Positions 692 through 13,128 of a DNA stretch of 64,000 bases are shown piece after piece. The notes under the pieces are model-generated. The model did not search any database. It worked only from the letters and a program-made list of their open reading frames with translations, and had not been told where the DNA came from. Numbering within the stretch: the stretch's first letter is position 1; every line of letters starts with the position of its first letter. The position numbers and the translations under genes were made by a program. The DNA is from Candidatus Harrisonbacteria bacterium (GTDB taxonomy: Bacteria > Patescibacteriota > Minisyncoccia > UBA6257 > 02-FULL-45-10c), in contig JACPTS010000001.1 of assembly GCA_016192685.1 (NCBI GenBank), positions 529,099 through 593,098 of the forward strand, in the 5' to 3' direction.

Positions 692-1063
692 ATGGAAAAA
701 TATAAAGAGTTATTAGATAAAATTGGAGATATGAAGGTGATGGAGTTGTCGGAATTAGTAAAAGCCATGGAAGAGAAATTTGGCGTTTCCGCGGCCATGC
801 CGGTTATGGCGGCTGGCGCCGGAGCGGCAGCCGGCGGAGAAGCGGAAGAAAAAACTTCTTGGGGGGTATTATTGAAAGAAGGCGGCGGCCAGAAAATCCA
901 GGTGATTAAAGTTTTGCGGGAAGTTACCGGAGTGGGATTGAAAGAAGCAAAGGATTTAGTTGATGCCGCGCCCAAAGTCGTGAAAGAAGGATTGAAAAAA
1001 GAAGAAGCGGAAGAATTGAAGAAGAAGCTGGAAGGCGCGGGCGCGACAGTCGAATTAAAATAA
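692..1063 (+). CDS. rplL: 50S ribosomal protein L7/L12
   Basis: 123 aa with an Ala/Gly-rich hinge ([14 protein letters not shown]) and a conserved C-terminal domain ([22 protein letters not shown]). Confidence 0.9.
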
Positions 1064-1072
1064 AAATAAAAA

Positions 1073-1101
1073 GTACCCTGATTGAAATTAGGGTATTTTT
1101 T
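1073..1101 (+). terminator. Rho-independent terminator after rplL
   Basis: Hairpin taccct-gattgaaat-tagggta followed by a T-run. Confidence 0.55.
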
Positions 1102-1122
1102 ATTTATATTAAATATAAATTA

Positions 1123-1194
1123 GGGCAGTTAGTTTAATGGTAAAACGCTGCATTCACATTGCAGAGAGCATAGGTCCGATTCCTATACTGCCCA
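1123..1194 (+). tRNA. tRNA-Val (anticodon CAC)
   Basis: Manual cloverleaf. Acceptor GGGCAGT/ACTGCCC, D-arm GTTT/AAAC, anticodon stem CTGCA/TGCAG with loop TTCACAT, T-arm ATAGG-TCCGATT-CCTAT, discriminator A, no encoded CCA. Confidence 0.7.
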
Positions 1195-2741
1195 CAAGTA
1201 GTAGCTAAATTGAATATGGCGAGTTTACGGGTGCGGGGGTGACACAAGTAGTCCAACGGTTCGTTTAATACCGCTTGGACTATTTGTTTGTCTCTAATAA
1301 CTAATTTTTTAAAAAATGTTTTTGCCAGTAACGCTTTAAGTTCTGGCGAGGCCTTTTTATAGGCATAGTTGCAGTTTGCGGCCAACGCCAAAGCAATTTC
1401 AATTGTTTTTAAAACATTGGCAATTTTACTCTCTGATTTTGCTAATTCCTCGTTGAGTCTCTTTTCCTCGGTTTCTAAATCCACTTTAACGCTTTGAAAA
1501 AGTTCTAAATCGTTTTCGCTGGCTTTATTATCAATAAGTTGCAAAACAAGATTTTTCTTGCGTTGCTTAATACTTTCAATTTTTCCCAAAATGTCGGCAC
1601 GGGCTTTTTCATAAACTCCCTGCTCATCTTTAAATAAAGTTTTAATTCTATTTCTTATTTTTTCAACAAGGTTATTTGGCAATTGCACCACTTTAAGGAT
1701 TTCTGTGAATTGGTTTAAATAATCATTTTCTTGGCCATAGCTTTGATTACAATTAACCCGCTTACTGTGTTGCGATTTTAGGCAACGCAAATATCTAACC
1801 AAATCGCCATTTTTAAGAGTATGTTCCTCCACTGTCATTTTGCTGCCGCACTCACCGCAAAAAGCAATTGTTTTAAGTATTGAAAATAACCTGCGGTTGC
1901 GGCTACCGCCCCCCAGTCGGGCATCAAGTATTGCTTGTGCTTTTTCAAACAACCCCCTGTCCAAAAAAACTTCGTGCTTGCCGTTGGGGTTAATTAAACT
2001 GCCCCAATCAATAACGCCAATATAAAACTTATCCCGAAGCATTTTAGCTAAAAAACTGGTGTGCATTTTGCCGTTATTCTTTTTATGTTTCCGCAATGGG
2101 AACCCCTCTTTTTCTAAAACTTCAGTAAGGGTAGCAATTGAATAATTGCCAGTCGCAAAAAGTTCAAATGCTTTAATAACCCATTTGGCTTCTTGCCAGT
2201 TTATTTCAACCCACGCCCTAACTTTCCCCGTAGCAACTTTTTCCTGAACATTTTTATAGCCGTAAGGGGCTCGTGTAGGCCACCACCCCTCTTTTAATTT
2301 TTGATACATACCAGATTTAACCTTTTCAGCATTTTGCAAAGAAAAAAACTCAGCCACGGAGGATAGCACTCCTTCAAGCATTTGCCCCGAAGGGGTTTTA
2401 TCAGTTCCTTCGGTGGCCGAGCAAATCCTAATGCCGTGCTGTTCAAGGTCTTTTTTTATCAATGCAAAGTCAATGCGGTTACGAGCCAAACGGCTAATAT
2501 CATAAAATATAACCGCTTTAACGGTTTTGTCAGTTCGGCAACGCTCCCAAAGAACCCTAAATTGCGGGCGGTTGGCAGTTCTGGCACTTTCGCCTGCGTC
2601 AGTGTAAATATCCGTTGTTTCATCAACCCCATAGCCGTTTTGCTTGGCATATTCAAGACAACGCTCTTTTTGGGCGGGAATTGATAATCCTTTTTGGGCT
2701 TGGCGGTCAGTGCTAACTCGCAAGTAAATTAACGCCGTCAT
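1134..2741 (-). CDS. Large serine recombinase (integrase) of an integrative element
   Basis: N-terminal resolvase catalytic domain (ALIYLRVSTDRQ with catalytic Ser, IFYDISRLARN), long C-terminal recombinase/zinc-ribbon region (CGECGSKM...C), 535 aa. The 3' end overlaps tRNA-Val in antisense. Confidence 0.85.
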   Translation of the reverse strand: MTALIYLRVSTDRQAQKGLSIPAQKERCLEYAKQNGYGVDETTDIYTDAGESARTANRPQFRVLWERCRTDKTVKAVIFYDISRLARNRIDFALIKKDLEQHGIRICSATEGTDKTPSGQMLEGVLSSVAEFFSLQNAEKVKSGMYQKLKEGWWPTRAPYGYKNVQEKVATGKVRAWVEINWQEAKWVIKAFELFATGNYSIATLTEVLEKEGFPLRKHKKNNGKMHTSFLAKMLRDKFYIGVIDWGSLINPNGKHEVFLDRGLFEKAQAILDARLGGGSRNRRLFSILKTIAFCGECGSKMTVEEHTLKNGDLVRYLRCLKSQHSKRVNCNQSYGQENDYLNQFTEILKVVQLPNNLVEKIRNRIKTLFKDEQGVYEKARADILGKIESIKQRKKNLVLQLIDNKASENDLELFQSVKVDLETEEKRLNEELAKSESKIANVLKTIEIALALAANCNYAYKKASPELKALLAKTFFKKLVIRDKQIVQAVLNEPLDYLCHPRTRKLAIFNLATTCGQYRNRTYALCNVNAAFYH

Positions 2742-2744
2742 AAT

Positions 2745-3233
2745 TTATTTATAACAAACCTCTAATCCATAAAATATTCCGTCTATATTTTTTAGTGATT
2801 TTATGCGAAAAGGGTAGTTAGAATTATTGAGATTACTCGCTGTTCTCAATTTATTTTCTTTCCAATTTTCTCTTTTGGGATACACGCTTATTGCACAGCC
2901 AAGGCCACCAGCATCAATCAAGCGGCCACCTTCGTCATAAAAGATTCCTAATACAAGACCTTCTTTTTCCCATTCTGCCCAACCAACCTCATCTAAGGGA
3001 TAACCCTTGGGTTCTTCGCCACGAAGAGGTGAGCCAATAGCTGTTTTTATTTGAGAAAAGGATTTCCCAAAAAGAGAGGGGATATCAAATATTATTCCTT
3101 GAGTTGGTAATGGTGGTTGAGAATCGCCAGTTGATATAATCACAATAAATAGGATAAACAATGCAGCAAAGGTCATCGCACCAATAGCAAACTTTTTGCT
3201 TGGCCAAGTTTTATTTGAATTTTGTAATTCCAT
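2745..3233 (-). CDS. Hypothetical membrane-anchored protein (island cargo)
   Basis: N-terminal hydrophobic helix FAIGAMTFAALFILFIVIIS. No recognisable domain. Confidence 0.4.
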   Translation of the reverse strand: MELQNSNKTWPSKKFAIGAMTFAALFILFIVIISTGDSQPPLPTQGIIFDIPSLFGKSFSQIKTAIGSPLRGEEPKGYPLDEVGWAEWEKEGLVLGIFYDEGGRLIDAGGLGCAISVYPKRENWKENKLRTASNLNNSNYPFRIKSLKNIDGIFYGLEVCYK

Positions 3234-3296
3234 TTTATTTTTTTAATTATAATTGCGACCTTTTGGCTAAACCTTTTAGAAAATAAAAAGGGACAG

Positions 3297-3430
3297 CCAG
3301 AACCTGCAACCCACAGTATTGAAAGCCGTGAAGCTCCCAATTGTGGAGGTTTGGCTGCCCCTTTCTGCCCGCAATTGGGCTAAGTAGCAGCTCTTCACGG
3401 AAAAACAATACTGTAGGTTGCATTTTTATT
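3297..3430. repeat. Long imperfect inverted repeat / structured intergenic element
   Basis: tgcaacccacagtattg...ccgtgaag...caattg is mirrored by caattggg...cttcacgg...caatactgtaggttgca, giving arms of about 40 bp. Confidence 0.5.
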
Positions 3431-3489
3431 TTAACACCATATATTTTGATTAGTAAATTACTCCAAAATGTCTTTTGATAAACTTGGTG

Positions 3490-3852
3490 CTAATTTTCAC
3501 AAATTTTAATTGTTAATGGCGACTTTACTGCGGTGCGTAATACCACTCCTTTCTTCGCAAAATTAGTAATATAGTTTTGTAAGTAGTCATCCGTTACAGA
3601 GTTTTGGTCATAAACGATTAAAATCCGTCTAACAAATTCCGTGCTCAGCATTTCTTGAAGCTGATTTATCGTGCGGATATTTGCATCACCACATTCTTCA
3701 TCGGCAATACATTCGCTGATGTAAATATCCGTTTCTGGATTTATGTCAAAACCATTTTCCTTTGCGTATTCTAAACATTTCTCTTTTCGTAGCCCCAACG
3801 ATTCTTTGTGAGGCGCACATTTATTTAGGTAAATTAACGCTTTATTTTTCAT
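3490..3852 (-). CDS. Degenerate serine-recombinase catalytic-domain paralog (catalytic Ser replaced by Cys)
   Basis: ALIYLNKCAPHK...KCLEYAKENGFDINPETDIY aligns to the integrase N-terminus ALIYLRVSTDRQ...RCLEYAKQNGYGVDETTDIY, but the S-TDRQ motif is lost. 120 aa. Confidence 0.6.
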   Translation of the reverse strand: MKNKALIYLNKCAPHKESLGLRKEKCLEYAKENGFDINPETDIYISECIADEECGDANIRTINQLQEMLSTEFVRRILIVYDQNSVTDDYLQNYITNFAKKGVVLRTAVKSPLTIKICEN

Positions 3853-3857
3853 ATTTT

Positions 3858-4337
3858 TTAGTTATTAGCCAATATTTGCTTACGGGCATTATTTAATTTA
3901 TTAACAAAGTAATCAGCTTCATTTTGCGGTAATTGCTGCACTATTTCATATAAACTAAATTCTTTATTGTTATTGCTTTCTACTGGTTTTGGCGGCTCAA
4001 GCCGTAAAAGTTCGGCCTGCCCCCTTAAAAGTTTTTGCAGTGCATTCAATGCACCAATTTTGGCATTGCTATTATCCGCCTCACTAAAAACGCACCAGCA
4101 TTCTTTAATTGCCAAATCGTAAGCCAATACCTGATTACAGAAATAGCGGTCAAGGTTTAATTTTTTATTACGATTACCTACTCGCCGTGCGGCCACCCGC
4201 AAATATTCTTTGGCCGTTGCCCAGTTTTTAATTCCAAGCCGCCGCATTATTTGATATGGCTTTTTAACGCCTATTACAAATAAAGCTTCAGTTTCGTCTA
4301 ATAAATATTCTCGGTCTATGTTTTTATGATTGGCCAT
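3858..4337 (-). CDS. Hypothetical protein (island)
   Basis: 159 aa ORF in the leftward island block, no recognisable motif. Confidence 0.35.
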   Translation of the reverse strand: MANHKNIDREYLLDETEALFVIGVKKPYQIMRRLGIKNWATAKEYLRVAARRVGNRNKKLNLDRYFCNQVLAYDLAIKECWCVFSEADNSNAKIGALNALQKLLRGQAELLRLEPPKPVESNNNKEFSLYEIVQQLPQNEADYFVNKLNNARKQILANN

Positions 4338-4535
4338 AATGTTGGTTGGGTTTCCCCTAAATTGTGCAATTTTGGCACAATTTTACTTATAGAGTGCAAT
4401 TCTTGCACTATTTTTACTTGCTTTACTTTTAGTAAAGGATAGTATGCTAATTTTTAGCTTAAAATCTTGTTTTCTTTTTCTTGCCTGCCCGCAATGAGCA
4501 AACGAAAGTTTGCTCATTGCTTGCTTGTAAAGCAA
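4338..4535. promoter_or_regulatory. Intergenic cluster of inverted repeats (candidate operators or origin)
   Basis: aattgtgc-aattttg-gcacaatt, agtgcaa-ttc-ttgcact, and a perfect 13-bp inverted repeat gcaatgagcaaac-gaaa-gtttgctcattgc. Confidence 0.4.
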
Positions 4536-5030
4536 TTATTTGACGGTATTTTCTGGGTTATTCTCTGTAATATTTTGCCCATAATTGCAATTTGTTTTGT
4601 TTGTTTCTACAAATTGATTTGTGGCTTCTGACGGCTGGGCATTGGTTTTGCGTAACAATTCTAACAGTTTAATGACATTTATTTTAAAATGTCTTTTGGG
4701 CGGCACTCCCTCTTTTTTAACCTCTAAAATCCCTAATTGCTTCCATTTTTTAATTGCTGTGTCTTGCTCGCCTCGCGTTAGTTTTGTTTCTTGGGACATT
4801 TCCTTAATGGTTTTATAAATCCACCCGACCTTTTTCCCCTTTTCCCACCAAAAAAGCAATTGCGACATAAATAAACCAGCATTGGCACTTTTAGCTAATT
4901 CTGCCAATAAAGGGTTAAATGCTATAGGTTTTGCGGATAAGGCCTCTAACAATATCCTATTATAATTTTTGGGTAGTTTTCGGGTCATATTTTTTAGATT
5001 TTTTAATTTTTGATAGTGAGCCGTGCTCAC
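4536..5030 (-). CDS. RepA_N / replisome-organiser-like winged-helix protein (putative replication initiator)
   Basis: Motif LFMSQLLFWWEKGKKVGWIYKTIKEMSQETKLTRGEQDTAIKKWKQLGILE resembles RepA_N/DnaD-like N-terminal wHTH domains. Confidence 0.45.
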   Translation of the reverse strand: MSTAHYQKLKNLKNMTRKLPKNYNRILLEALSAKPIAFNPLLAELAKSANAGLFMSQLLFWWEKGKKVGWIYKTIKEMSQETKLTRGEQDTAIKKWKQLGILEVKKEGVPPKRHFKINVIKLLELLRKTNAQPSEATNQFVETNKTNCNYGQNITENNPENTVK

Positions 5031-5031
5031 T

Positions 5032-5052
5032 ATTTTGATAATGGTTTAAATC
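5032..5052. promoter_or_regulatory. 9-bp inverted-repeat candidate operator upstream of the RepA_N-like gene
   Basis: atagtgagc-cgt-gctcactat, directly 5' of the minus-strand start at 5030. Confidence 0.4.
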
Positions 5053-5139
5053 CTTTGCGACAAACACCAAAACACGAGCAATGGCATCAATTACCATTTC
5101 GGTTAAGACCCCCTTGTTATCGGGCTGATTTTCCATAAA

Positions 5140-5200
5140 TTAACGCCCCCAAGTAGCAGCCCGCCACCTTGAGGGCGTTAATTTATGGGAGCTGCTACTT
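5140..5200. repeat. Nested hairpin with aagtagcagc/gctgctactt arms
   Basis: ttaacgccc...gggcgttaa nested with aagtagcagc...gctgctactt. The 10-mer aagtagcagc also occurs at about 3383, and a near copy (aagtagtagc) lies just 3' of tRNA-Val. Confidence 0.4.
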
Positions 5201-5270
5201 TTTCAAAATTAAAAAGGGCTATATGCCCTTTATACACCCACTTTTTATTTAGCCCCGCCAACAATTGTTA

Positions 5271-6077
5271 CTATTGTTGTCCGTTAATATCAATATCAAA
5301 CCATTGTTTAATTAACTTTTTAATACGCTTAAATGCATTACCGACAGCTCCCGCCGTTGTTTTTAGTTCTTTTGCAATTTCACGGGCTGTAACTTGGTTA
5401 TATCTAATAACTACATCTTTTTTATATTCCTTTTCCAAGCCCCGAAGTTTTTTGGGAGAATAAGTGCCGCTCTTTTTAGCTATCACTAAAAAGCTGGACG
5501 GTAAATAATCCTTGCGCCTAACTGGATTTCCAATTCTTTTAATCAGCTTGTCAAAAATAACTAAATCTCTTTTAAATTGTTTTCGTGAGCGTATTGGTAG
5601 TGTTGTTTCTTTGGAAAAATAAAGTTTCTGTAAGTTTTTTAAATCATTTAAAGCCAGTTTTATTTCTTCTTTGTCTAAAAGGGCAAAAGTTTTAATAGAT
5701 AAATAATCAACCTCGCCGCTTTTTGGCTGGTGCTCAATAACAAAATTATAAACAGGGGGCACAATTTTATTTTTTAGAATGTAAGCCCTCAACCCATCGC
5801 CAAACAAGTTGATAAGGTGATAAGGCAATTTAAATTTTCGCCCCAATTGTTCTAATTGATTGCCGAATTTTAAATTGTCTTCTTTTTCATTAAGGGCTCG
5901 CTGCCAATTTGCCATTTGTTCGTCAGTAATAATACCGCTGCTGGGTATGTTGAATTGTTGTCTAATCGCGACGGCTTCTTTCTGGAATTGGGGTAATCTA
6001 ATCAATAATTCAAGCCGCATTCGGTTACGAAATGCGGCAGAACCCAAATTGATTGGTTTTTCGCGGCGGGCTGCCAT
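5271..6077 (-). CDS. Hypothetical protein with C-terminal HTH (sigma-70 region-4-like)
   Basis: C-terminus VTAREIAKELKTTAGAVGNAFKRIKKL is a helix-turn-helix. 268 aa. Confidence 0.4.
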   Translation of the reverse strand: MAARREKPINLGSAAFRNRMRLELLIRLPQFQKEAVAIRQQFNIPSSGIITDEQMANWQRALNEKEDNLKFGNQLEQLGRKFKLPYHLINLFGDGLRAYILKNKIVPPVYNFVIEHQPKSGEVDYLSIKTFALLDKEEIKLALNDLKNLQKLYFSKETTLPIRSRKQFKRDLVIFDKLIKRIGNPVRRKDYLPSSFLVIAKKSGTYSPKKLRGLEKEYKKDVVIRYNQVTAREIAKELKTTAGAVGNAFKRIKKLIKQWFDIDINGQQ

Positions 6078-6170
6078 ACAGGCATAATTTAAGGGACTGT
6101 ATCCAAAAAATCAATATACTACCAGCTTGTCTTAAGTAATTTTATACGATAAAATAAAAGCACTTAAAAA

Positions 6171-6359
6171 ATGATTTCCAACGAGGCACTAAAAGAATTT
6201 AAGAAAATTTGGCTTGAAGAAAAAGGCACAGAAATTTCTGATGCGGAGGCAATGGATGAAGCATCTAATCTTTTGACTTTGTTCAATGCTGTTTATCGCC
6301 CCGTGAAAAAAGAGTGGCTGGAAAACCAACCAGAGGAAAAAGGAGATAAAAAATTATGA
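6171..6359 (+). CDS. Small hypothetical protein (first gene of cargo operon)
   Basis: 62 aa, acidic. Its stop overlaps the next start (ATGA), consistent with translational coupling. Confidence 0.35.
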   Translation: MISNEALKEFKKIWLEEKGTEISDAEAMDEASNLLTLFNAVYRPVKKEWLENQPEEKGDKKL

Positions 6360-6961
6360 TTATAGACTTCCCAAAAATCAAAGAAAATTTACACAAAGGA
6401 ATGGAAATTTTCTTACGACAAGAAATTAACCGTAAAGCTCCTTTTGCGGCAACGATTGGCAAACACTTCTTTCACGAAGGAGATAAGTCCTCTTACGAAA
6501 CAGTTGACCGTGAAAAAAAAGCTCTTGATTTTAAACGAGGCGAGAGTCAATTTACGGTAACTCGTGATGAAATGAATAAGTTGACCATAAAAGACATAAT
6601 TCAAAAAGTTCAAGGTATCGCAGAAGATATGGCGGGACAAATAGAGCGTAATCTATTCCAAACAATGAACGAAACTATTGAAAAGTCTGGCAATACAATA
6701 CCTGGTAATCCGCCGTTCTCGCCAGAAGCATTTTTGAAGGGTCTGGAAATGGTTGAAATTGATTTTGATGAGGATGACCGCAACAAACCTCAACTTCCCA
6801 CGCTGGTGATGCACCCAGACCTTGCGAAGAAAGCCAAAGAGCAGGAAGCCAATATGACAGCAGAGGAAAAGAAAGCCTTTGACGAAAAGATGAAGGCGAT
6901 GATAGATAAGAAATATGATGATTTTCTCACCAGAGAAGCCAAAAGAAAATTGGTGGACTAA
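6356..6961 (+). CDS. Hypothetical protein (cargo operon)
   Basis: 201 aa, charged/coiled C-terminus, no recognised domain. Confidence 0.4.
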   Translation: MIIDFPKIKENLHKGMEIFLRQEINRKAPFAATIGKHFFHEGDKSSYETVDREKKALDFKRGESQFTVTRDEMNKLTIKDIIQKVQGIAEDMAGQIERNLFQTMNETIEKSGNTIPGNPPFSPEAFLKGLEMVEIDFDEDDRNKPQLPTLVMHPDLAKKAKEQEANMTAEEKKAFDEKMKAMIDKKYDDFLTREAKRKLVD

Positions 6962-8615
6962 ACTCCTCTCCCGCCTTCTTGGAACGAAACCAGCAATTCA
7001 GGAGAGCGTGAAGGAGTCCAACCCGTTTTTGGAGCGAACCATTGAAAATTGGTTAAACTCCGCAAATGAAATGGGTTATTTAATGCCCTTCAGCCAGCTT
7101 CTGTTAAGCGAGGAATTTAGTATTTGTCATACCTCACGTCAAAATGCTTTTGAGCAAGGCAAAGATGTGGTTGCGCTTGATAAGCACGGAAGCTCCCACG
7201 CCTTCCAACTAAAGGGCGGCAACATTACGCATAGCAGATGGCTTAAGGAAGTTAAAGGAGAGATTGAGGAATTGATTGATTTGGCTATTGAGCACCCATC
7301 AGTCAGTAAAGGGAGTAAGCACAAATCTTATTTGGTAACCAACGGTGAATTGGAAGACACGGTGCGAGTGGCGATTGATAATCTTAATTCAAACAAGTGG
7401 AAGGAAAACCCTCTTGAAGTGATTACCTACGGACAACTTTTGAGGGGGTTTGTGGCATTAAGCAATACTTTCGTGCCGCAGAAAGTTGGAAACTATAAAA
7501 CATTCCTTGATTTATACTTCAGCAATGGCGGCGGGTTAATTGACGAAAGGATTTTCTCTGATTTTATCGCTGATGTCTTGAGACTGAAGGAAGACGGTTT
7601 GTTTAAAGAAGAACGGCGAAGAAACGTTGCGGCGGCTGTATTATATACGAGCTACATCCTTGCTCCGTTCAAAAAAGAAAATAATCACATCGCAATCATT
7701 CAAATTCTTACCCTGCTTGGGAGTCATATTATGGCTGTGGCAGAGAAGTTTTCCCTCCCAGAAAAGTATTGGGAAGAATCATTCAAAATCATACAAGACG
7801 AAATTTTCCTTACTGGAGGTAGATTACAGGAAGAAATTACAAACGATGGGCTGGTTACGCTCGTTAATTCAATGTGGGATGGCGAGATTGGTAGTTACAG
7901 AAGGCATCTGGCGGTGAGCTATCTATTCTCCTTCAAGTTAGCTCAACTTTTTGAAAAGAACACTCTGTGGAACAATGCGGTCAATGATGCGTTCTTCGTG
8001 AAGTTAAAAGATTCAATGAAACTGTGGGGCGAAGGCGCAATCTATTCATTGATTGTATGCTTCCTGTATGTGAATAGGGCTTTGAGTAAAAAAGAAGATG
8101 ATAGAGCATTTTCTCCGCTCTTTACTGCCCTTGAGGCAGTCTTAAAATTCAATAGTCCAGATAGTAAATTTGGTTTGTTGTCGCCATATTACGGAATCAC
8201 GTTTGCAATTAAGCGGCGGTATGGACAGCTTGAGGAACCGTTGGATGAAAAGTTCACTGGGCGGTCATTCTTGATACGGTCTCTGATTGACCTTTTGGCA
8301 CGCCACAGTAGGAGGTTAGAGTTGGAAAAGTATTGGAGAGCTATAACACATATAGCCCAAGACAAATTCATTCCTGAAGAATTATGGCAACATTTTACTT
8401 GGCATTGTGATAAGGGCGATAATCAATCCGAGTTTTCCAATCAAACTCAAAGCTGGATAGAGTTAGTAAAGAATGCTAATGCAATTGATTTTGACTCAAT
8501 ACCAAAAACCATTCAAACGCATCTGTCTTTTTTACCTCTTTTTTTACTTGTGTATCCGCACAGAATAAACAGTAATTATATAAAATTTTTAGATGAAACT
8601 GTTAAAAATGCCTAA
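6915..8615 (+). CDS. Large hypothetical protein with possible N-terminal PD-(D/E)xK-like nuclease motif (cargo operon)
   Basis: 566 aa. GKDVVALDKHGSSHAFQLKGG fits a D...(E/Q)xK pattern. The rest appears helical. The true start is uncertain because of a 46-nt +1 overlap with the upstream ORF. Confidence 0.4.
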   Translation: MMIFSPEKPKENWWTKLLSRLLGTKPAIQESVKESNPFLERTIENWLNSANEMGYLMPFSQLLLSEEFSICHTSRQNAFEQGKDVVALDKHGSSHAFQLKGGNITHSRWLKEVKGEIEELIDLAIEHPSVSKGSKHKSYLVTNGELEDTVRVAIDNLNSNKWKENPLEVITYGQLLRGFVALSNTFVPQKVGNYKTFLDLYFSNGGGLIDERIFSDFIADVLRLKEDGLFKEERRRNVAAAVLYTSYILAPFKKENNHIAIIQILTLLGSHIMAVAEKFSLPEKYWEESFKIIQDEIFLTGGRLQEEITNDGLVTLVNSMWDGEIGSYRRHLAVSYLFSFKLAQLFEKNTLWNNAVNDAFFVKLKDSMKLWGEGAIYSLIVCFLYVNRALSKKEDDRAFSPLFTALEAVLKFNSPDSKFGLLSPYYGITFAIKRRYGQLEEPLDEKFTGRSFLIRSLIDLLARHSRRLELEKYWRAITHIAQDKFIPEELWQHFTWHCDKGDNQSEFSNQTQSWIELVKNANAIDFDSIPKTIQTHLSFLPLFLLVYPHRINSNYIKFLDETVKNA

Positions 8616-8777
8616 TTGGCGACACTCATTAAGTTGGCCGCCGCCAATCGATTAAAGCAATTCTCAAACAAAATACGCTGGTATTCGCTTAATTTTTGCG
8701 ATAATGTATTGATGTATTCAATTAGTGTCCTGTTAAGCCCACCAAAATTAAAAAAGCTTCGTTAAACGAAGCTTTTT

Positions 8778-9449
8778 CTAATCTTCTTCTTCCTTCTTGG
8801 CTAATTCCGTGGCAACTATTGTAATCCCAATTTTTAACTGGCCAACGATTTTTTCCATATGCAATTCCGGTTGGGAATTTAAAGTTATTTCTACATAACC
8901 GTTTTTTGTGCCAGAGCTATTATAAGTAGTGACGCAAACCATTGATTTCCCATCTTTTTCAGTTTTTTGGAAAGTACCGTACATAGAGCCATCTTCTTTT
9001 TCAAAAAGGTTGTCAGTTTTAATTGTTTTTTCACCATTTTGTTCGGAATCATATATAAAGTTGAACAATTCAATTAAATTTTGGGCTTCTTCAGGCCGAA
9101 ATTCGGTATATTTCAGGAATTGAATGAAACTTTTACCATCCGTAGTATTTTCCAAAGAAAGCATTATTTTTTCTGGATGAAAATCCTCCGGACTAGCTGG
9201 CCAGGCATTAATTGAAACTATTTTTATTTTATTTTTTGGCTGCTCCTGATATTTTATTCTGATGCTTAATTCATCCCAATTTACGCCATAAAAAAACATT
9301 GCTATTTTTTGGTACCATTTTACATTTTGAAATTCAAGATCGTAATGAATTATTTGTTCTTTGAAATTTGTTTCTTCCGCGAAAGCAACGGCAGTGAAGC
9401 GGGAGATGAAGAAAAGAAGCAAGATTGGCGCGGTTATTAAGCGGGCCAT
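8778..9449 (-). CDS. Secreted hypothetical protein
   Basis: N-terminal signal peptide MARLITAPILLLFFISRFTAVAFA. 223 aa. Confidence 0.45.
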   Translation of the reverse strand: MARLITAPILLLFFISRFTAVAFAEETNFKEQIIHYDLEFQNVKWYQKIAMFFYGVNWDELSIRIKYQEQPKNKIKIVSINAWPASPEDFHPEKIMLSLENTTDGKSFIQFLKYTEFRPEEAQNLIELFNFIYDSEQNGEKTIKTDNLFEKEDGSMYGTFQKTEKDGKSMVCVTTYNSSGTKNGYVEITLNSQPELHMEKIVGQLKIGITIVATELAKKEEED

Positions 9450-9710
9450 TCCTTTTAAATTTTTATTTTAAATAACCTTTTTAAGGTTATTCTATTTTTA
9501 TGAAAATCACAAGTCTAATCAGGCGAAATTCCAGGGTGTGGATAACCTGCGGATAAAAAAGCCATTTTAGCTTTATTTTTTAGCCTATTTTGGCGCTGGC
9601 TGGCATTGTTAAATTTTTAATCCAAGTGGGGTACAATTAAATGGTAGTGGGGAATTGTGGATAAGTATGGGGATAGAGCGTCAATCAGGGGATAAGTTCC
9701 ACTCGCTGTA

Positions 9711-9842
9711 CCTTTCTTTCTATCGGCACCGGCGTCGCTTCGCTCCAGCGGCGAAGCGCGCCTACGCCTCGCTCCGAAAATTTTCGCTTCGCGAAAAACC
9801 AATCTTTTTGGAGCTCCGTAGTTGCCGTACAAAAGAAAGGTA
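9711..9842 (+). repeat. GC-rich palindromic repeat element, family A, copy 1
   Basis: Core cggcaccggcgtcg...cgcctacgcctcgctccgaaa...ttcgcttcgcgaaa...ggagctccgtagttgccg with terminal inverted repeat acctttct/agaaaggt. Sits at the right edge of the integrative element. Confidence 0.7.
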
Positions 9843-9894
9843 AGCTCGCTAATTGTTGTTAGTTGTGGGTCGTTAGTCATAAGTCATAAGTCAA

Positions 9895-10326
9895 ATGTTT
9901 ATAGGCGAATACCAACATTTAATAGACGATAAAGGCAGATTGGCGGTGCCGGCTAAATTTCGCGGCGCTTTGAAAAATGGCGCGGTAGTTACTCACGGAT
10001 TAGACCATTGTCTTTTTGTTTTTGAAAAAAAGGAATGGGGGATTTGGGCCGGTAAAATAAAAGCCATGCCGATTGCCAAATCTAATTCCCGGGCCTTTGG
10101 CCGTCTGATGCTTGGCGGCGCCATGGAAGCATCCTTGGATGTTCAGGGCAGAATTTTAATTCCTGATTATTTACGGGAATATGCCGGATTAAAAAAGAAT
10201 GCCATCGTTACCGGTTTGTATAATAGACTGGAAATTTGGGATGCCGAAAATTGGAAGAAATATAAATCAAAAACCGAAGCCTCATCTGAGGATATTGCCG
10301 AACAGTTGGATGGCCTCGGTATATGA
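9895..10326 (+). CDS. mraZ: Transcriptional regulator MraZ
   Basis: MFIGEYQHLIDDKGRLAVPAKFR, 143 aa, first gene of the dcw cluster. Confidence 0.9.
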   Translation: MFIGEYQHLIDDKGRLAVPAKFRGALKNGAVVTHGLDHCLFVFEKKEWGIWAGKIKAMPIAKSNSRAFGRLMLGGAMEASLDVQGRILIPDYLREYAGLKKNAIVTGLYNRLEIWDAENWKKYKSKTEASSEDIAEQLDGLGI

Positions 10327-11195
10327 CGCACATTCCAGTTCTTTTAAAAGAAGTAATTGAGCTACTTGACCCAAAAGAGAGGGAAATAATAATTGACGGC
10401 ACTGCCGGCAGCGGCGGCCACGCAAAAGCGGTATTGCAGAAAATTGGGGAAACTGGGCAACTTTTACTGGTTGATTGGGATAAAGAATCAATCGCTAATT
10501 TAAAAAAGGCATTTGCCAGCTATCCCAATGTTTTTATTATTCATGGTAATTATGCCGAATTGCCCGGCATCATGGCGGAAAATAATTTTCCTAAAGCGGA
10601 TGGCTTACTGCTTGATTTGGGGTTTTCTTCCGAGCAATTAGAAAAAAGCGGCCGGGGATTCAGTTTTCAAAAGGAAGAACCGTTATTGATGACTTATAGC
10701 GATGCCAGCGAATCGCTGCAAGAATTTTTGAAATACGTTTCCATTTCGGAATTAACGGATATCATCCGGAAATTCGGCGAAGAAAGATATGCCGAAAGAA
10801 TTGCCGAGGCAATTTATGCGAAGCGGCGGCAAATTTCCAGCAGCCAGCAATTAGGAGAAATTATAAAAGAGGCGGTTCCTAAAAATTATGAACGGGGCCG
10901 CATTCATCCGGCTACCAGAACTTTTCAGGCTTTACGGATTTATTTAAATAAAGAATTAGAAAATTTGGAAAAAGTCTTAAGCGCGCTGGATCAAATTTTA
11001 ACGCCCGGCGGCCGAGCAGTTATTATTTCCTTCCATTCTTTAGAGGATAGGATTGTAAAAAATTATTTTAGAGAATTAGCTAAAAAAGGTCGAATAAAAA
11101 TTATTACTAAAAAACCAACAATGGCGAGCCAAGAGGAAATTAGCCAAAATCCTCGTTCCCGATCCGCTAAACTCCGAGCCGCCATTATTATCTAG
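10323..11195 (+). CDS. rsmH: 16S rRNA (cytosine1402-N4)-methyltransferase RsmH
   Basis: IPVLLKEV...DGTAGSGGH...DLGFSS SAM-MTase motifs, following mraZ. Confidence 0.9.
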   Translation: MTHIPVLLKEVIELLDPKEREIIIDGTAGSGGHAKAVLQKIGETGQLLLVDWDKESIANLKKAFASYPNVFIIHGNYAELPGIMAENNFPKADGLLLDLGFSSEQLEKSGRGFSFQKEEPLLMTYSDASESLQEFLKYVSISELTDIIRKFGEERYAERIAEAIYAKRRQISSSQQLGEIIKEAVPKNYERGRIHPATRTFQALRIYLNKELENLEKVLSALDQILTPGGRAVIISFHSLEDRIVKNYFRELAKKGRIKIITKKPTMASQEEISQNPRSRSAKLRAAIII

Positions 11196-11197
11196 CC

Positions 11198-11497
11198 ATG
11201 ACTATTATTGAGCCAGCAAAAAATAATTATATTAGTGAATTTTTATATATCGGACTATTAATTTTAATGTCAGCCGCCTTCAGCATCTATTTTTATAATT
11301 TAAATGTTAATTTAAAATACCAAATTAGCCTGCAGGAGAAATCTTTGCAGCAATTAGAAGCGGACAATGCCGATTTAAAGAACCAGTTTTATCAGATTCT
11401 TGATTCTAAAAATCTTGCCGTCATTGTTAAAAAACAAAATTTAATCTCCGATAAAAATCCGGATTATTTTGAGCACAAAATTTTTGCTTCAATGTGA
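11198..11497 (+). CDS. FtsL-like small membrane/coiled-coil cell-division protein
   Basis: 99 aa with one TM and a coiled coil, positioned between rsmH and ftsI. Confidence 0.5.
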   Translation: MTIIEPAKNNYISEFLYIGLLILMSAAFSIYFYNLNVNLKYQISLQEKSLQQLEADNADLKNQFYQILDSKNLAVIVKKQNLISDKNPDYFEHKIFASM

Positions 11498-13128
11498 TGA
11501 AATTCCGCCTTTTTCTTATAATTTCTTTTTTCTCTCTTTTAAACGCTACCTTGTTTTTTAAACTTTATGACCTCCAAATTGAAAAAAAGGAATACTACGC
11601 GAAGAAAGCCGCTTCCCAGCATCGTTTAGCTGGTTTTTTAGAGCCGCAGCGCGGCAATATTTATTTTACGGATAGGAATAATAATTTAATTCCAGCGGCC
11701 ATGAATAAAGCTTATCAAGTTATTTTTTCCGTTCCCAAAGAGATTCAAGATCCCGCCCTAACTGCCGCCTCGCTGGCTTCGGCGGCTGCTTTGGATAAAG
11801 AGAAATTGGTAAAAATGTTCAGTAAGCCCGACGATGAATACGAATTATTTTTGCGCAAAGCCTCGTTATCCCAATTGGAAAAAATCCGCGAGCTTAATTT
11901 AAAAGGAATTTATGCTGACGAAGAAAATTTAAGATTTTATCCATTTAAAAATCAGGCTTCCCACCTGCTGGGTTTTGTGGGAATTGACCATGAAAATTCT
12001 TATCCGGCCGGAAAATACGGTTTGGAATTTTATTATGATGAAAAACTTAAAGGCGAAGCCGGCCGATTGGAAACTAACCGGATTATTGACCCGATTTCCG
12101 GAGAAAATCTTTATTTGACGATTGATTCTAACATTCAAATCCGGGCGGAAGAAATTTTATTTAATTTAATCCAAAAATATAAAGCCGAGCGGGGAATGGT
12201 CATAGTGCAGGAGCCTAAAACCGGAAAAATTTTAGCCATGGGCGTTTATCCGAATTTTGACCCGAATAATTACGCGGATTATAAGGTGGAAAATTTTTTG
12301 AATCCAGCCCTGCAGTCGGTTTTTGAGCCGGGGTCAGTAATGAAAGTGGTTACCATGTCTGCCGGGATTGACGCCAAGAAATTCACTCCGGAAACTACGG
12401 TTTATGATTCTGGTTCTCTTACTTTGGATAGCCGGACAATCAAAAATTGGGATAATAAAGCCCACGGCAAAGTAACCATGACTGAAGTGATTGAGCAGTC
12501 CATTAATATTGGAGCGGCGCAGGCGGCAAAAATTATCGGAAAGGACCTTTTTTATAATTATTTGGTAAAATTCGGATTCGGAGAAAAAACCGGCATCGGC
12601 CTGCCGGGAGAAGTGGTTGGCAGCCTCGGCAATTTAAAATCCAGCTTCCGGGATATTAATTTTGCCACTGCCGCTTTCGGCCAGGGAGTGGCGGTTACGC
12701 CGATCCAGATGATTAATTCTTTTTCTGCCATTGCCAATGGCGGAGTTTTAATGAGGCCGTATTTAAATGCCGATGAGGGTTCCAAAGTGATTCGCCGGGT
12801 TATTTCGGAAGAAGCGGCCAGAGCAGTAACTAAAATGATGATTTCCGCGGTAAAAAAAGCAGCCATTGCCCAGATTCCGAAATTTGATATTGCCGGTAAA
12901 ACCGGCACTGCCCAAATCCCGGATTTAAAAAGAGGCGGCTATCTTGAAGAATTTATCCATACTTATATCGGATTCGCGCCGGCTTTTGACCCGAAATTCA
13001 CTATTTTAATCCGGATTGATAAACCGGTTGGCGCGCCTTTAGCCGGCTTAACGGTCGTGCCGGCTTTCCGGGAATTGTCAGAATTTATTTTGAATTATTA
13101 TAACGTCCCGCCAGATTACAATGAATAA
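11494..13128 (+). CDS. ftsI: Penicillin-binding protein transpeptidase (FtsI/PBP2-like)
   Basis: Dimerisation domain plus transpeptidase domain. Contains a SVMK (SxxK) motif and a KTGTA motif. Confidence 0.85.
   Translation: MMKFRLFLIISFFSLLNATLFFKLYDLQIEKKEYYAKKAASQHRLAGFLEPQRGNIYFTDRNNNLIPAAMNKAYQVIFSVPKEIQDPALTAASLASAAALDKEKLVKMFSKPDDEYELFLRKASLSQLEKIRELNLKGIYADEENLRFYPFKNQASHLLGFVGIDHENSYPAGKYGLEFYYDEKLKGEAGRLETNRIIDPISGENLYLTIDSNIQIRAEEILFNLIQKYKAERGMVIVQEPKTGKILAMGVYPNFDPNNYADYKVENFLNPALQSVFEPGSVMKVVTMSAGIDAKKFTPETTVYDSGSLTLDSRTIKNWDNKAHGKVTMTEVIEQSINIGAAQAAKIIGKDLFYNYLVKFGFGEKTGIGLPGEVVGSLGNLKSSFRDINFATAAFGQGVAVTPIQMINSFSAIANGGVLMRPYLNADEGSKVIRRVISEEAARAVTKMMISAVKKAAIAQIPKFDIAGKTGTAQIPDLKRGGYLEEFIHTYIGFAPAFDPKFTILIRIDKPVGAPLAGLTVVPAFRELSEFILNYYNVPPDYNE

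Follow-up and report, generated by a model that had tools for sequence, protein, structure and literature searches.

Here we describe a conserved pair of genes, encoding a small protein of 201 amino acids (aa) and a large protein of 566 aa with a predicted PD-(D/E)xK-type nuclease core, carried on an integrated element in the genome of Candidatus Harrisonbacteria bacterium (assembly GCA_016192685.1). The pair lies within a 64,000-nucleotide (nt) stretch of contig JACPTS010000001.1 (positions 529,099 to 593,098), which was analysed as a whole and is called the window below. With a probability that we put at about 0.6, the two genes form a mobile nuclease module that shields its host or carrier element from phages or other invading DNA. 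An earlier note on this DNA, made from the letters alone, had proposed a three-gene cargo operon (62, 201 and 566 aa) as a candidate anti-phage system; a predicted nuclease in a defence-related context is retained here, and the module is reduced to two genes.

A conserved gene pair and its two proteins

Hidden Markov models of both protein families, run against the six-frame open reading frames (ORFs) of every fetched locus, showed one arrangement in 51 of 51 loci (42 non-redundant): a single copy of each gene, both on one strand, with the small gene immediately before the large one. Judged by homology, the 201-aa and 566-aa ORFs are real genes, because both have many relatives: a word-indexed search returned 148 homologues of the 566-aa protein and 91 of the 201-aa protein, none with a Pfam domain and all named "hypothetical protein" where the source gives a name. 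An exhaustive profile search extended the small family to 1,601 representatives of 50%-identity clusters (E<=0.001), and nearly all of the best 150 of these are 190-205 aa long. The 201-aa protein itself is 100% identical to a protein from a Candidatus Harrisonbacteria metagenome-assembled genome (MAG), its host being a bacterium of the candidate phyla radiation (CPR).

The third ORF of the proposed operon behaves differently. The 62-aa gene gave no tblastn match in 53 related loci, and its protein no family match in Pfam, PADLOC, PHROGs or NCBIfam scans; no coding sequence occupies the 200 nt before the pair in a relative with 69% identity (locus L145), and the gene is also absent from that place in L001 and L005. 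By this comparison it is a local, element-specific addition outside the conserved module, which consists of the 201-aa and 566-aa genes. The ORFs, their common plus strand and the ATGA overlap of the first two were as the earlier note had described them; a conserved three-gene unit was not found.

The large family was aligned from 49 sequences, down to ~25% identity. Eleven residues of the N-terminal part are invariant in this alignment (E52, E80, G82, K83, D84, Q98, K100, T142-N143-G144 and N158), and the C-terminal two-thirds contribute about a dozen further invariant positions, including N257, R329, G372-E373, P424-Y425, R463, W474, G501, P548 and R550. An AlphaFold2 model of the protein (mean predicted local distance difference test, pLDDT, 87.6; predicted template-modelling score, pTM, 0.87; residues 1-35 of low confidence) shows a restriction-endonuclease-like domain followed by an all-alpha domain. 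The D...QxK form is typical of Mrr and MspJI-type enzymes, and we take Q98-x-K100 to be the Mrr/MspJI-type variant of ExK. Alignment and model together identify the N-terminus as a predicted PD-(D/E)xK-type nuclease core of the D...QxK variant. Such a core had been suspected in the segment DVVALDKHG...AFQLK, with the proviso that its motif residues might not be conserved among homologues; D84 and Q98-x-K100 are invariant in the 49 sequences and the predicted fold agrees, as does the long helical region expected after the core. This C-terminal helical domain may be a regulatory or partner-binding module.

Structural comparison of the model returned FokI (2fok, score 10.7), AF1548 (1y88, 10.3), the small subunit of R.BspD6I (2p14, 10.2), the nickase N.BspD6I (2ewf, 10.1), AspBHI (4oc8, 9.0), MspJI (4f0p, 8.9), NucS (2vld, 8.9) and LlaBIII (4xqk, 8.9), with Hna, Upx, Cdn1 and HamA lower in the list. 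Profile searches of PDB sequences with three family alignments yielded chance matches only.

The small protein was modelled from 49 sequences with less certainty (pLDDT 83.8, pTM 0.62). Its predicted N-terminal part consists of a helix, a short hairpin and a helix of 34 residues (78-111), after which stand an invariant G112 and a near-invariant N113; then come a small alpha/beta region with an invariant F137 in a D-F-D motif and a 31-residue C-terminal helix ending in the conserved tail RE-x-(N/K)-RKLV(D/G). Searches of Pfam and NCBIfam gave nothing significant, and none of the PDB sequences matched. In its predicted fold the protein is similar to HK97-type capsid and encapsulin shell proteins, and residues 40-167 align to positions 64-187 of the 282-position profile phrog_544, "major head protein" (E 0.027), which four of the 49 family members also match (best E 1.1e-5). 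A Foldseek comparison with viral models was not significant, its top match being a P22-type coat fragment (E 0.22, TM-score 0.41-0.44). Alignment of the small protein by hhalign to the single sequence of the 80alpha capsid protein gave a non-significant probability of 2.7%, with the spine-helix region aligned; the IMG/VR relatives of that capsid protein (80 loci, all ~98-100% identical) are too uniform for a capsid profile. The small protein also differs from HK97-fold shell proteins in being, at ~200 aa, too short for a complete HK97 fold, in having few predicted beta-strands, and in always being paired with an enzyme and not with virion genes: no portal, terminase, protease or encapsulin-cargo gene stands beside the pair in 12 Pfam-annotated contexts. 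On balance we lean towards a genuine HK97-derived fold.

The small family also occurs with another partner. The small protein's only "phage" match (E 2e-5) lies in MT835554.1, an unverified "Bacteriophage sp." record of bacterial appearance, where a 206-aa family member (L054, positions 5749-8276 with its partner; hhalign 97.6%, E 3.5e-12) is followed, with a 4-nt overlap, by a 636-aa protein. The N-terminus of the latter carries what read by eye, with no profile, as caspase-like His/Cys motifs (FFAGHGG...IIDACQAGG). Pairing with a protein of this type recurs in four of five related metagenome loci (L140-L144), the four that keep upstream sequence; these loci are mutually 81-85% identical and represent one lineage. 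A helical domain shared by the 636-aa protein and the 566-aa family was considered and is not supported (hhalign probability 0.9%). The observation hints at exchangeable effectors, with the small protein as the constant component.

The junction between the small and large genes

In the window the two ORFs overlap in the +1 phase, as the earlier note had recognised, though over 47 nt where it had counted 46. Comparison of the loci identifies this overlap as what is left of a dual-coding junction that the family had ancestrally. In 28 of the 42 non-redundant loci, from Bacteria and Archaea alike, the start of the large gene falls within the small one; the usual start codon (27 loci) is at -34 exactly, counted in nt from the final base of the small-gene stop, and starts at -37 or -46 are also found. 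A Shine-Dalgarno-like core lies inside the small gene's conserved K-(K/R)-x-E-W codons in 20 of these 27 loci, which points to coupled expression of the two genes. Read in frame 0, the same ~30 nt give "...W-x-D-R-E-S-N-R-K-L-V-D-stop"; read in frame +1, they give "M-I-E-R-V-I-E-N-W-L-T", which is the nuclease's first helix and is conserved.

Constraint on the junction was measured as information content at the third-codon positions of the small gene. It rises from 0.22 bits (codons -40 to -13) to 1.50 bits (last 11 codons) in the 28 overlapping loci, as against 0.85 and 0.51 bits in 11 uncoupled loci, whose last 11 codons are still conserved at positions 1 and 2 (1.03 and 1.45 bits). This distribution over codon positions indicates that both frames are under selection where the genes overlap, and that the small-protein tail is also constrained by itself. 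A sequencing error at 6900-6970 is excluded, since the out-of-frame overlap, under selection in both frames, is conserved throughout the family.

The earlier note had raised the option that the overlap marks programmed +1 ribosomal frameshifting, which would fuse the 201-aa and 566-aa ORFs into one protein of ~750 aa, and the conservation in most loci of a long overlap of the same +1 phase speaks for it. However, the downstream ORF is equipped with a separate start codon, fixed at -34, -37 or -46 and in most loci preceded by a Shine-Dalgarno-like core, and eight lineages have the two genes cleanly separated, or in the same frame with a stop between them. No fused homologue occurs among the large-family hits listed, which do not exceed 600 aa (best 120 of 148); the 91 small-family matches of the word search reach at most 268 aa, and the best 150 of the 1,601 representatives at most 251 aa. 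No slippery or homopolymeric run is evident in the consensus junction, for which no formal slippery-site search was made, and dual coding of two separately conserved termini accounts for the third-position conservation. We regard fusion as extremely improbable and keep to two proteins encoded by overlapping genes.

How such an overlap can be resolved is seen within the family. In the eight separated lineages, mostly CPR, the large gene starts 0-11 nt after the small-gene stop. The clade of the window (the window, L007, L009 and L145) is intermediate: the ancestral ATG at -46 or -37 is kept and its frame is open, and the genuine first helix lies 71-80 nt after the small-gene stop, so that the large protein has an N-terminal extension of ~40 residues that is poorly conserved and modelled with low confidence. 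Two copies of a junction repeat in the window align with each other with a score of 31, against a shuffle mean of 16.4 +/- 3.4, a value reached by 1 of 500 shuffles. This indicates that a local duplication partly uncoupled the two coding regions, which explains the likeness of "EKPKENWWTK", the +1 reading of the small-gene tail, to "ERTIENWLNS".

The start of the large gene in the window is uncertain, the candidates being ATG 6915/6918, GTG 7008 and TTG 7029, the last of which is the start assigned to the identical protein P0001 by a public gene caller. GTG 7008 as the sole start, with the overlap an artefact, was considered and rejected: L007 and L009 offer no other start codon, and the frame of the extension is open in both, so there the extension must be translated. 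The junction offers a clean natural case of long-term dual coding, of ~11 codons in two frames in both prokaryotic domains, with the lineages that resolved the overlap by duplication as an internal control for overlapping-gene evolution. It should also be useful to gene callers, which at present disagree on the start (528 versus 566 aa for the same sequence).

Distribution, neighbourhoods and carrying element

The pair is patchily distributed over both prokaryotic domains, its loci including 38 GTDB species genomes. CPR loci come from Parcubacteria/Paceibacterota, Gracilibacteria, Peribacteria and Saccharibacteria; other bacterial loci from Myxococcota, Thermodesulfobacteriota, Chloroflexi, Eisenbacteria, Terriglobia, Phycisphaerae, Actinomycetota, Planctomycetota and Bacteroidota, and from Ignavibacteriaceae, Segetibacter, Nocardia, Actinospica and Salinarimonas; and archaeal loci from Bathyarchaeia, Nitrososphaerota and Methanosarcina.

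Defence genes, including restriction-modification (R-M) systems, or mobile-element genes accompany the pair in 10 of 12 annotated independent neighbourhoods. Mobile carriage is evident in the window (a serine-recombinase element at a tRNA), on an Agrobacterium contig with a MobA/TraI relaxase, a relaxase plasmid (L003), and on an ICE-like locus with TraG/TrbI conjugation genes, an nSTAND NTPase and a tyrosine integrase (L053). A PIN-like gene, a serine recombinase homologous to that of the window and an MmeI-type R-M system are found in L007; further homologues of this recombinase lie near the pair in L021 and L031. Elsewhere the neighbours are N4/N6 and Dam-type methyltransferases with SocA/Panacea (L009-11), a HinfI endonuclease and methyltransferase directly upstream and Fic downstream (L051), PDDEXK_1, DUF932, BilB/BilD of the Bil system, an M78 peptidase and PHP-SMC (L052), a Type ISP domain with AAA_15 and a transposase (L055), a complete Type I R-M system with a Schlafen-like gene (L056/57), and a Type I R-M system with AAA_15/HNH (L058). 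The neighbourhoods of the homologues thus vary and abound in defence and mobile-element genes, in place of conserved metabolic contexts, the outcome that the earlier note's proposal of a defence system called for. Such neighbourhoods, together with a patchy distribution over two domains, are the signature of a defence module.

Several of these features would also suit a toxin-antitoxin (TA) or addiction module, in which a nuclease toxin and a small upstream antitoxin stabilise plasmids, integrative and conjugative elements (ICEs) and other integrative elements: the small gene comes first and the nuclease second with tight translational coupling, the catalytic residues are invariant, and mobile carriage is frequent (relaxase plasmid, ICE, serine-recombinase elements). 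Yet both proteins are far above the typical size of type II TA components, Pfam scans detected no DNA-binding domain for autoregulation in the small protein, and many copies reside in chromosomal defence islands beside R-M systems and not on plasmids. We consider a pure addiction function unlikely. Many abortive-infection systems are TA-like, and TA and defence functions are not mutually exclusive.

Representation in viral and plasmid collections is sparse. The pair occurs on only one contig of IMG/VR (2.9 million contigs), the large protein has no tblastn match in 50,697 GenBank phage records, and its sole plasmid match by tblastn is to the N-terminal domain of a Rhodococcus "restriction endonuclease". 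On the IMG/VR contig (L012; IMGVR_UViG_3300050335_000119, 954-11605) the pair follows a same-strand run of large ORFs, and one neighbouring ORF encodes a 1,210-aa Upf1-like superfamily 1 helicase (E 8e-7 to UPF1 structures); the locus looks like a defence cluster in a predicted viral region rather than a set of virion genes.

These data bear on a further explanation, namely that the pair serves the life cycle of a satellite or similar element, the capsid-like protein hijacking helper capsid assembly and the nuclease processing DNA for packaging or attacking the helper genome. There is precedent for the first part, in that Ccm/CpmB of Staphylococcus aureus pathogenicity islands (SaPI) and TcaP of phage-inducible chromosomal island-like elements (PLE) redirect helper-phage capsid assembly. 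But the pair is found in many chromosomal defence islands that have no integrase, replication or packaging genes, and in archaea as well; no portal, terminase or protease gene lies beside it in any annotated locus; and the single viral contig, with its Upf1-like helicase, and the lack of large-protein matches in phage records fit such a life cycle poorly. We therefore rate a satellite function as very unlikely, and the defence reading is kept.

Two genomes deserve mention in their own right. The 3.8-Mb MAG chromosome OZ244870.1 holds two copies of the pair, at ~41-63 kb (L032) and ~704-725 kb (L033); their match statistics are identical and suggest that a mobile element was duplicated. In a Bacteroidetes MAG (L056, 8548-10164) the large gene is split into calls of 411 aa and 100 aa while the near-identical L057 copy is intact (538 aa); the former is either a pseudogenised copy or an assembly error.

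In the window itself, the three ORFs are cargo of a small integrated element beside tRNA-Val, and the tRNA gene, the serine recombinase and the phage O/DnaD-like initiator around them confirm the mobile setting first noted from the letters alone. The order from 5' to 3' is rplJ, rplL, tRNA-Val, the serine recombinase, several small ORFs, the replication initiator, a weakly matched helix-turn-helix (HTH) protein, the 62-, 201- and 566-aa genes, a convergent 223-aa ORF and the host mraZ-rsmH-ftsI cluster. Coordinates are collected in Table 1.

Table 1. Features of the gene pair and its carrying element, with positions counted from the first letter of the window.
Feature	Position	Strand	Remarks
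tRNA-Val	1123-1195	+	left end of carrying element; abuts/overlaps 3' end of recombinase
Large serine recombinase, 535 aa	1134-2741	-	Resolvase, Recombinase and Zn-ribbon domains
Replication initiator of element, phage O-like/DnaD-like	4536-5030	-	phrog_9773, E 3.7e-29
Sigma-70-like promoter candidate, TTGTCT-17-TAAAAT	6127-6155	+	16 nt upstream of 62-aa ORF; consensus scan only
62-aa ORF, acidic, helical	6171-6359	+	ATGA overlap with next gene
Small-subunit ORF, 201 aa	6356-6961	+	large family of ~193-202-aa proteins without annotation
Large-subunit ORF, 566 aa from ATG 6915	6915-8615	+	+1 frame relative to 201-aa ORF
Out-of-frame (+1) overlap of small and large ORFs, 47 nt	6915-6961	+	from ORF coordinates
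Junction repeat copy 1, AGAGAAGCCAAAAGAAAATTGGTGGACTAAACTCC	6932-6966	+	small-protein tail in frame 0, EKPKENWWTK in frame +1
Alternative large-gene start GTG	7008	+	535 aa; AGGAG Shine-Dalgarno; after small-gene stop
Alternative large-gene start TTG	7029	+	528 aa; AAGGAG; after small-gene stop
Junction repeat copy 2, AGCGAACCATTGAAAATTGGTTAAACTCC	7033-7061	+	large protein's genuine first helix, ERTIENWLNS
Predicted restriction-endonuclease-like PD-(D/E)xK domain, alpha-beta-beta-beta-alpha-beta	7020-7484	+	residues ~36-190
Acidic motif E80-Q-G-K-D84, opening core strand 2	7152-7166	+	codons verified; E80, G82, K83 and D84 invariant
QxK motif Q98-L-K100 on core strand 3 (strand 94-100)	7206-7214	+	invariant; alignment and AlphaFold2 model
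Predicted C-terminal all-alpha domain	7485-8612	+	residues ~191-566; many invariant polar or aromatic residues
13-bp hairpin	8750-8778	.	between convergent large gene and 223-aa ORF; 3' of both

The tRNA-Val gene and the 3' end of the opposite-strand recombinase ORF share ~60 nt, and because of this overlap the attachment site is suggested to lie within or at the end of the tRNA-Val gene. No convincing attL/attR direct repeats were found around the element, as expected for a serine recombinase; its right boundary lies somewhere between 8616 and 9894. The promoter candidate is weak, the number of such sites in the region not exceeding shuffle expectation.

A 120-aa ORF on the minus strand (3490-3852) has 38% identity over 82 aa (E 9e-12) to the resolvase-type catalytic domain of the recombinase, and the two genes have a DNA repeat in common (2603-2670 and 3720-3787). 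NKCAPHKE stands where the recombinase has its catalytic-serine motif RVSTDRQ. By this similarity the ORF is a degenerate paralogue of the catalytic domain, and may be a remnant or a regulatory decoy. Between the replication-initiator and HTH genes lies a near-perfect 21-nt inverted repeat (5133-5188; 95% complementary, 14-nt loop), possibly serving as terminator, operator or origin element. The 223-aa ORF converging on the large gene (8778-9449, minus strand) has no family assignment and a hydrophobic N-terminus that is probably a signal peptide; the ORF may be part of the element or of the host genome. The hairpin between the two was scored by the scan as a minus-strand terminator-like site.

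Proposed function and relation to known systems

We infer complex formation, DNA cleavage, a defence phenotype and its trigger as follows. The large subunit would be the effector, an Mrr/FokI-like PD-(D/E)xK DNA endonuclease with E52, E80, D84, Q98 and K100 as catalytic residues, controlled or targeted by its ~375-residue helical domain. The small subunit would be the partner that it requires, with translational coupling keeping the two in fixed proportion. Through its long C-terminal helix and its invariant tail the small subunit probably binds the large one, and it probably acts as a regulator or sensor that holds the nuclease silent until infection. Once released, the nuclease would cleave invader DNA, or host DNA in an abortive response.

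If the capsid-like fold is real, the small subunit could act as a decoy that engages a phage capsid, scaffold or protease and so releases or activates the nuclease. A capsid-like subunit would make this the simplest mechanism, and we hold it as a tentative and rather doubtful step. A broader version, in which an exapted, truncated HK97 capsid protein is the constant decoy sensor for interchangeable nuclease and caspase-like effectors, is similarly speculative; since the dual-coded junction is common to Bacteria and Archaea, such a sensor would be ancient.

A number of points weigh against the defence reading. It is drawn from sequence, predicted structure and genomic context, namely pairing, active-site conservation, nuclease fold, neighbourhoods and dual coding, and the C-terminal helical domain has no assigned function. 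The context evidence consists of counts of neighbourhoods, and in two of the 12 contexts (L001 and L005) no recognisable defence or mobile-element genes lie by the pair. Pfam, NCBIfam, PHROG and PADLOC (2023) contain no significant model for the window's own pair proteins. To our knowledge CPR bacteria also have no tractable phage system, so that a phenotype in the native host is out of reach.

If defence is confirmed, prokaryotic immunity would gain a widespread family (~1,600 small-subunit clusters at 50% identity) that extends to CPR bacteria and archaea, two groups whose defences have been little studied. A capsid-fold partner, if true, would be new in principle, since an immune sensor would then have come from a structural protein of viruses; no earlier account of a defence system with a capsid-like subunit turned up in literature searches. 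Neither Pfam, NCBIfam and PADLOC 2023 nor the literature found names the pair, which may have been described elsewhere.

Among restriction enzymes, the large protein resembles the Mrr/MspJI/FokI class in its predicted alpha-beta-beta-beta-alpha-beta core and D...QxK variant. It differs in that no winged-helix, SRA or other DNA-recognition domain was detected in it, and in having a ~375-residue helical C-terminal domain of its own and an obligatory small partner. The likeness invites the explanation that the pair is a Type IV or stand-alone restriction endonuclease with an accessory subunit, reading modified or foreign DNA directly, with no sensing of phage proteins. Against it stand the lack of a recognised SRA, winged-helix, Mrr_N or other DNA-reading domain in either protein, and the scores for Pfam Mrr_cat (PF04471), which the window protein does not match at E<=1 and one of 49 relatives matches at E 0.0076; nor would an obligatory capsid-like partner have a role. 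We think direct restriction of this kind improbable beside the proposed defence module with a partner-controlled nuclease.

The earlier note could name no known system, and scans of Pfam, NCBIfam, PHROG and PADLOC (2023) named none either, the large protein having no PADLOC match at E<=1. In the large family, detectable sequence similarity to a PADLOC model is confined to the nuclease domain: OloB of the Olokun system is matched by 11 of the 49 members (best E 9.2e-7), over ~4-195 of its 556 profile positions. Olokun (Millman et al. 2022) is reported to form a ~278-kDa 2:2 complex of the adaptin-like OloA and the PD-(D/E)xK nuclease OloB and to degrade phage DNA in vitro (bioRxiv 10.1101/2025.07.10.664194). 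Both are two-gene systems with a PD-(D/E)xK effector of similar length (the OloB profile has 556 positions) and a nuclease active site. However, all 51 loci of the present pair have a partner of ~200 aa, in contrast to the larger OloA, and an overlapping, dual-coded junction is not a described Olokun feature. OloA gave no match among 49 small-family members at E<=0.1. By profile comparison the large family is a distant relative of OloB in the nuclease domain only, and the pair is not an Olokun system, because its partner has no OloA match and is only ~200 aa long.

With capsid-triggered defence systems (CapRel-SJ46, bioRxiv 10.1101/2022.05.30.493996; Lit; and some CBASS, the cyclic-oligonucleotide-based systems, and Avs) the likeness would be conceptual only, in a head-assembly trigger. 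In those systems capsid protein is sensed by unrelated sensor domains. We know of none that contains a capsid-fold subunit. What is unusual in the present pair is its putative capsid-shell-fold partner, together with a dual-coded junction conserved across Bacteria and Archaea.

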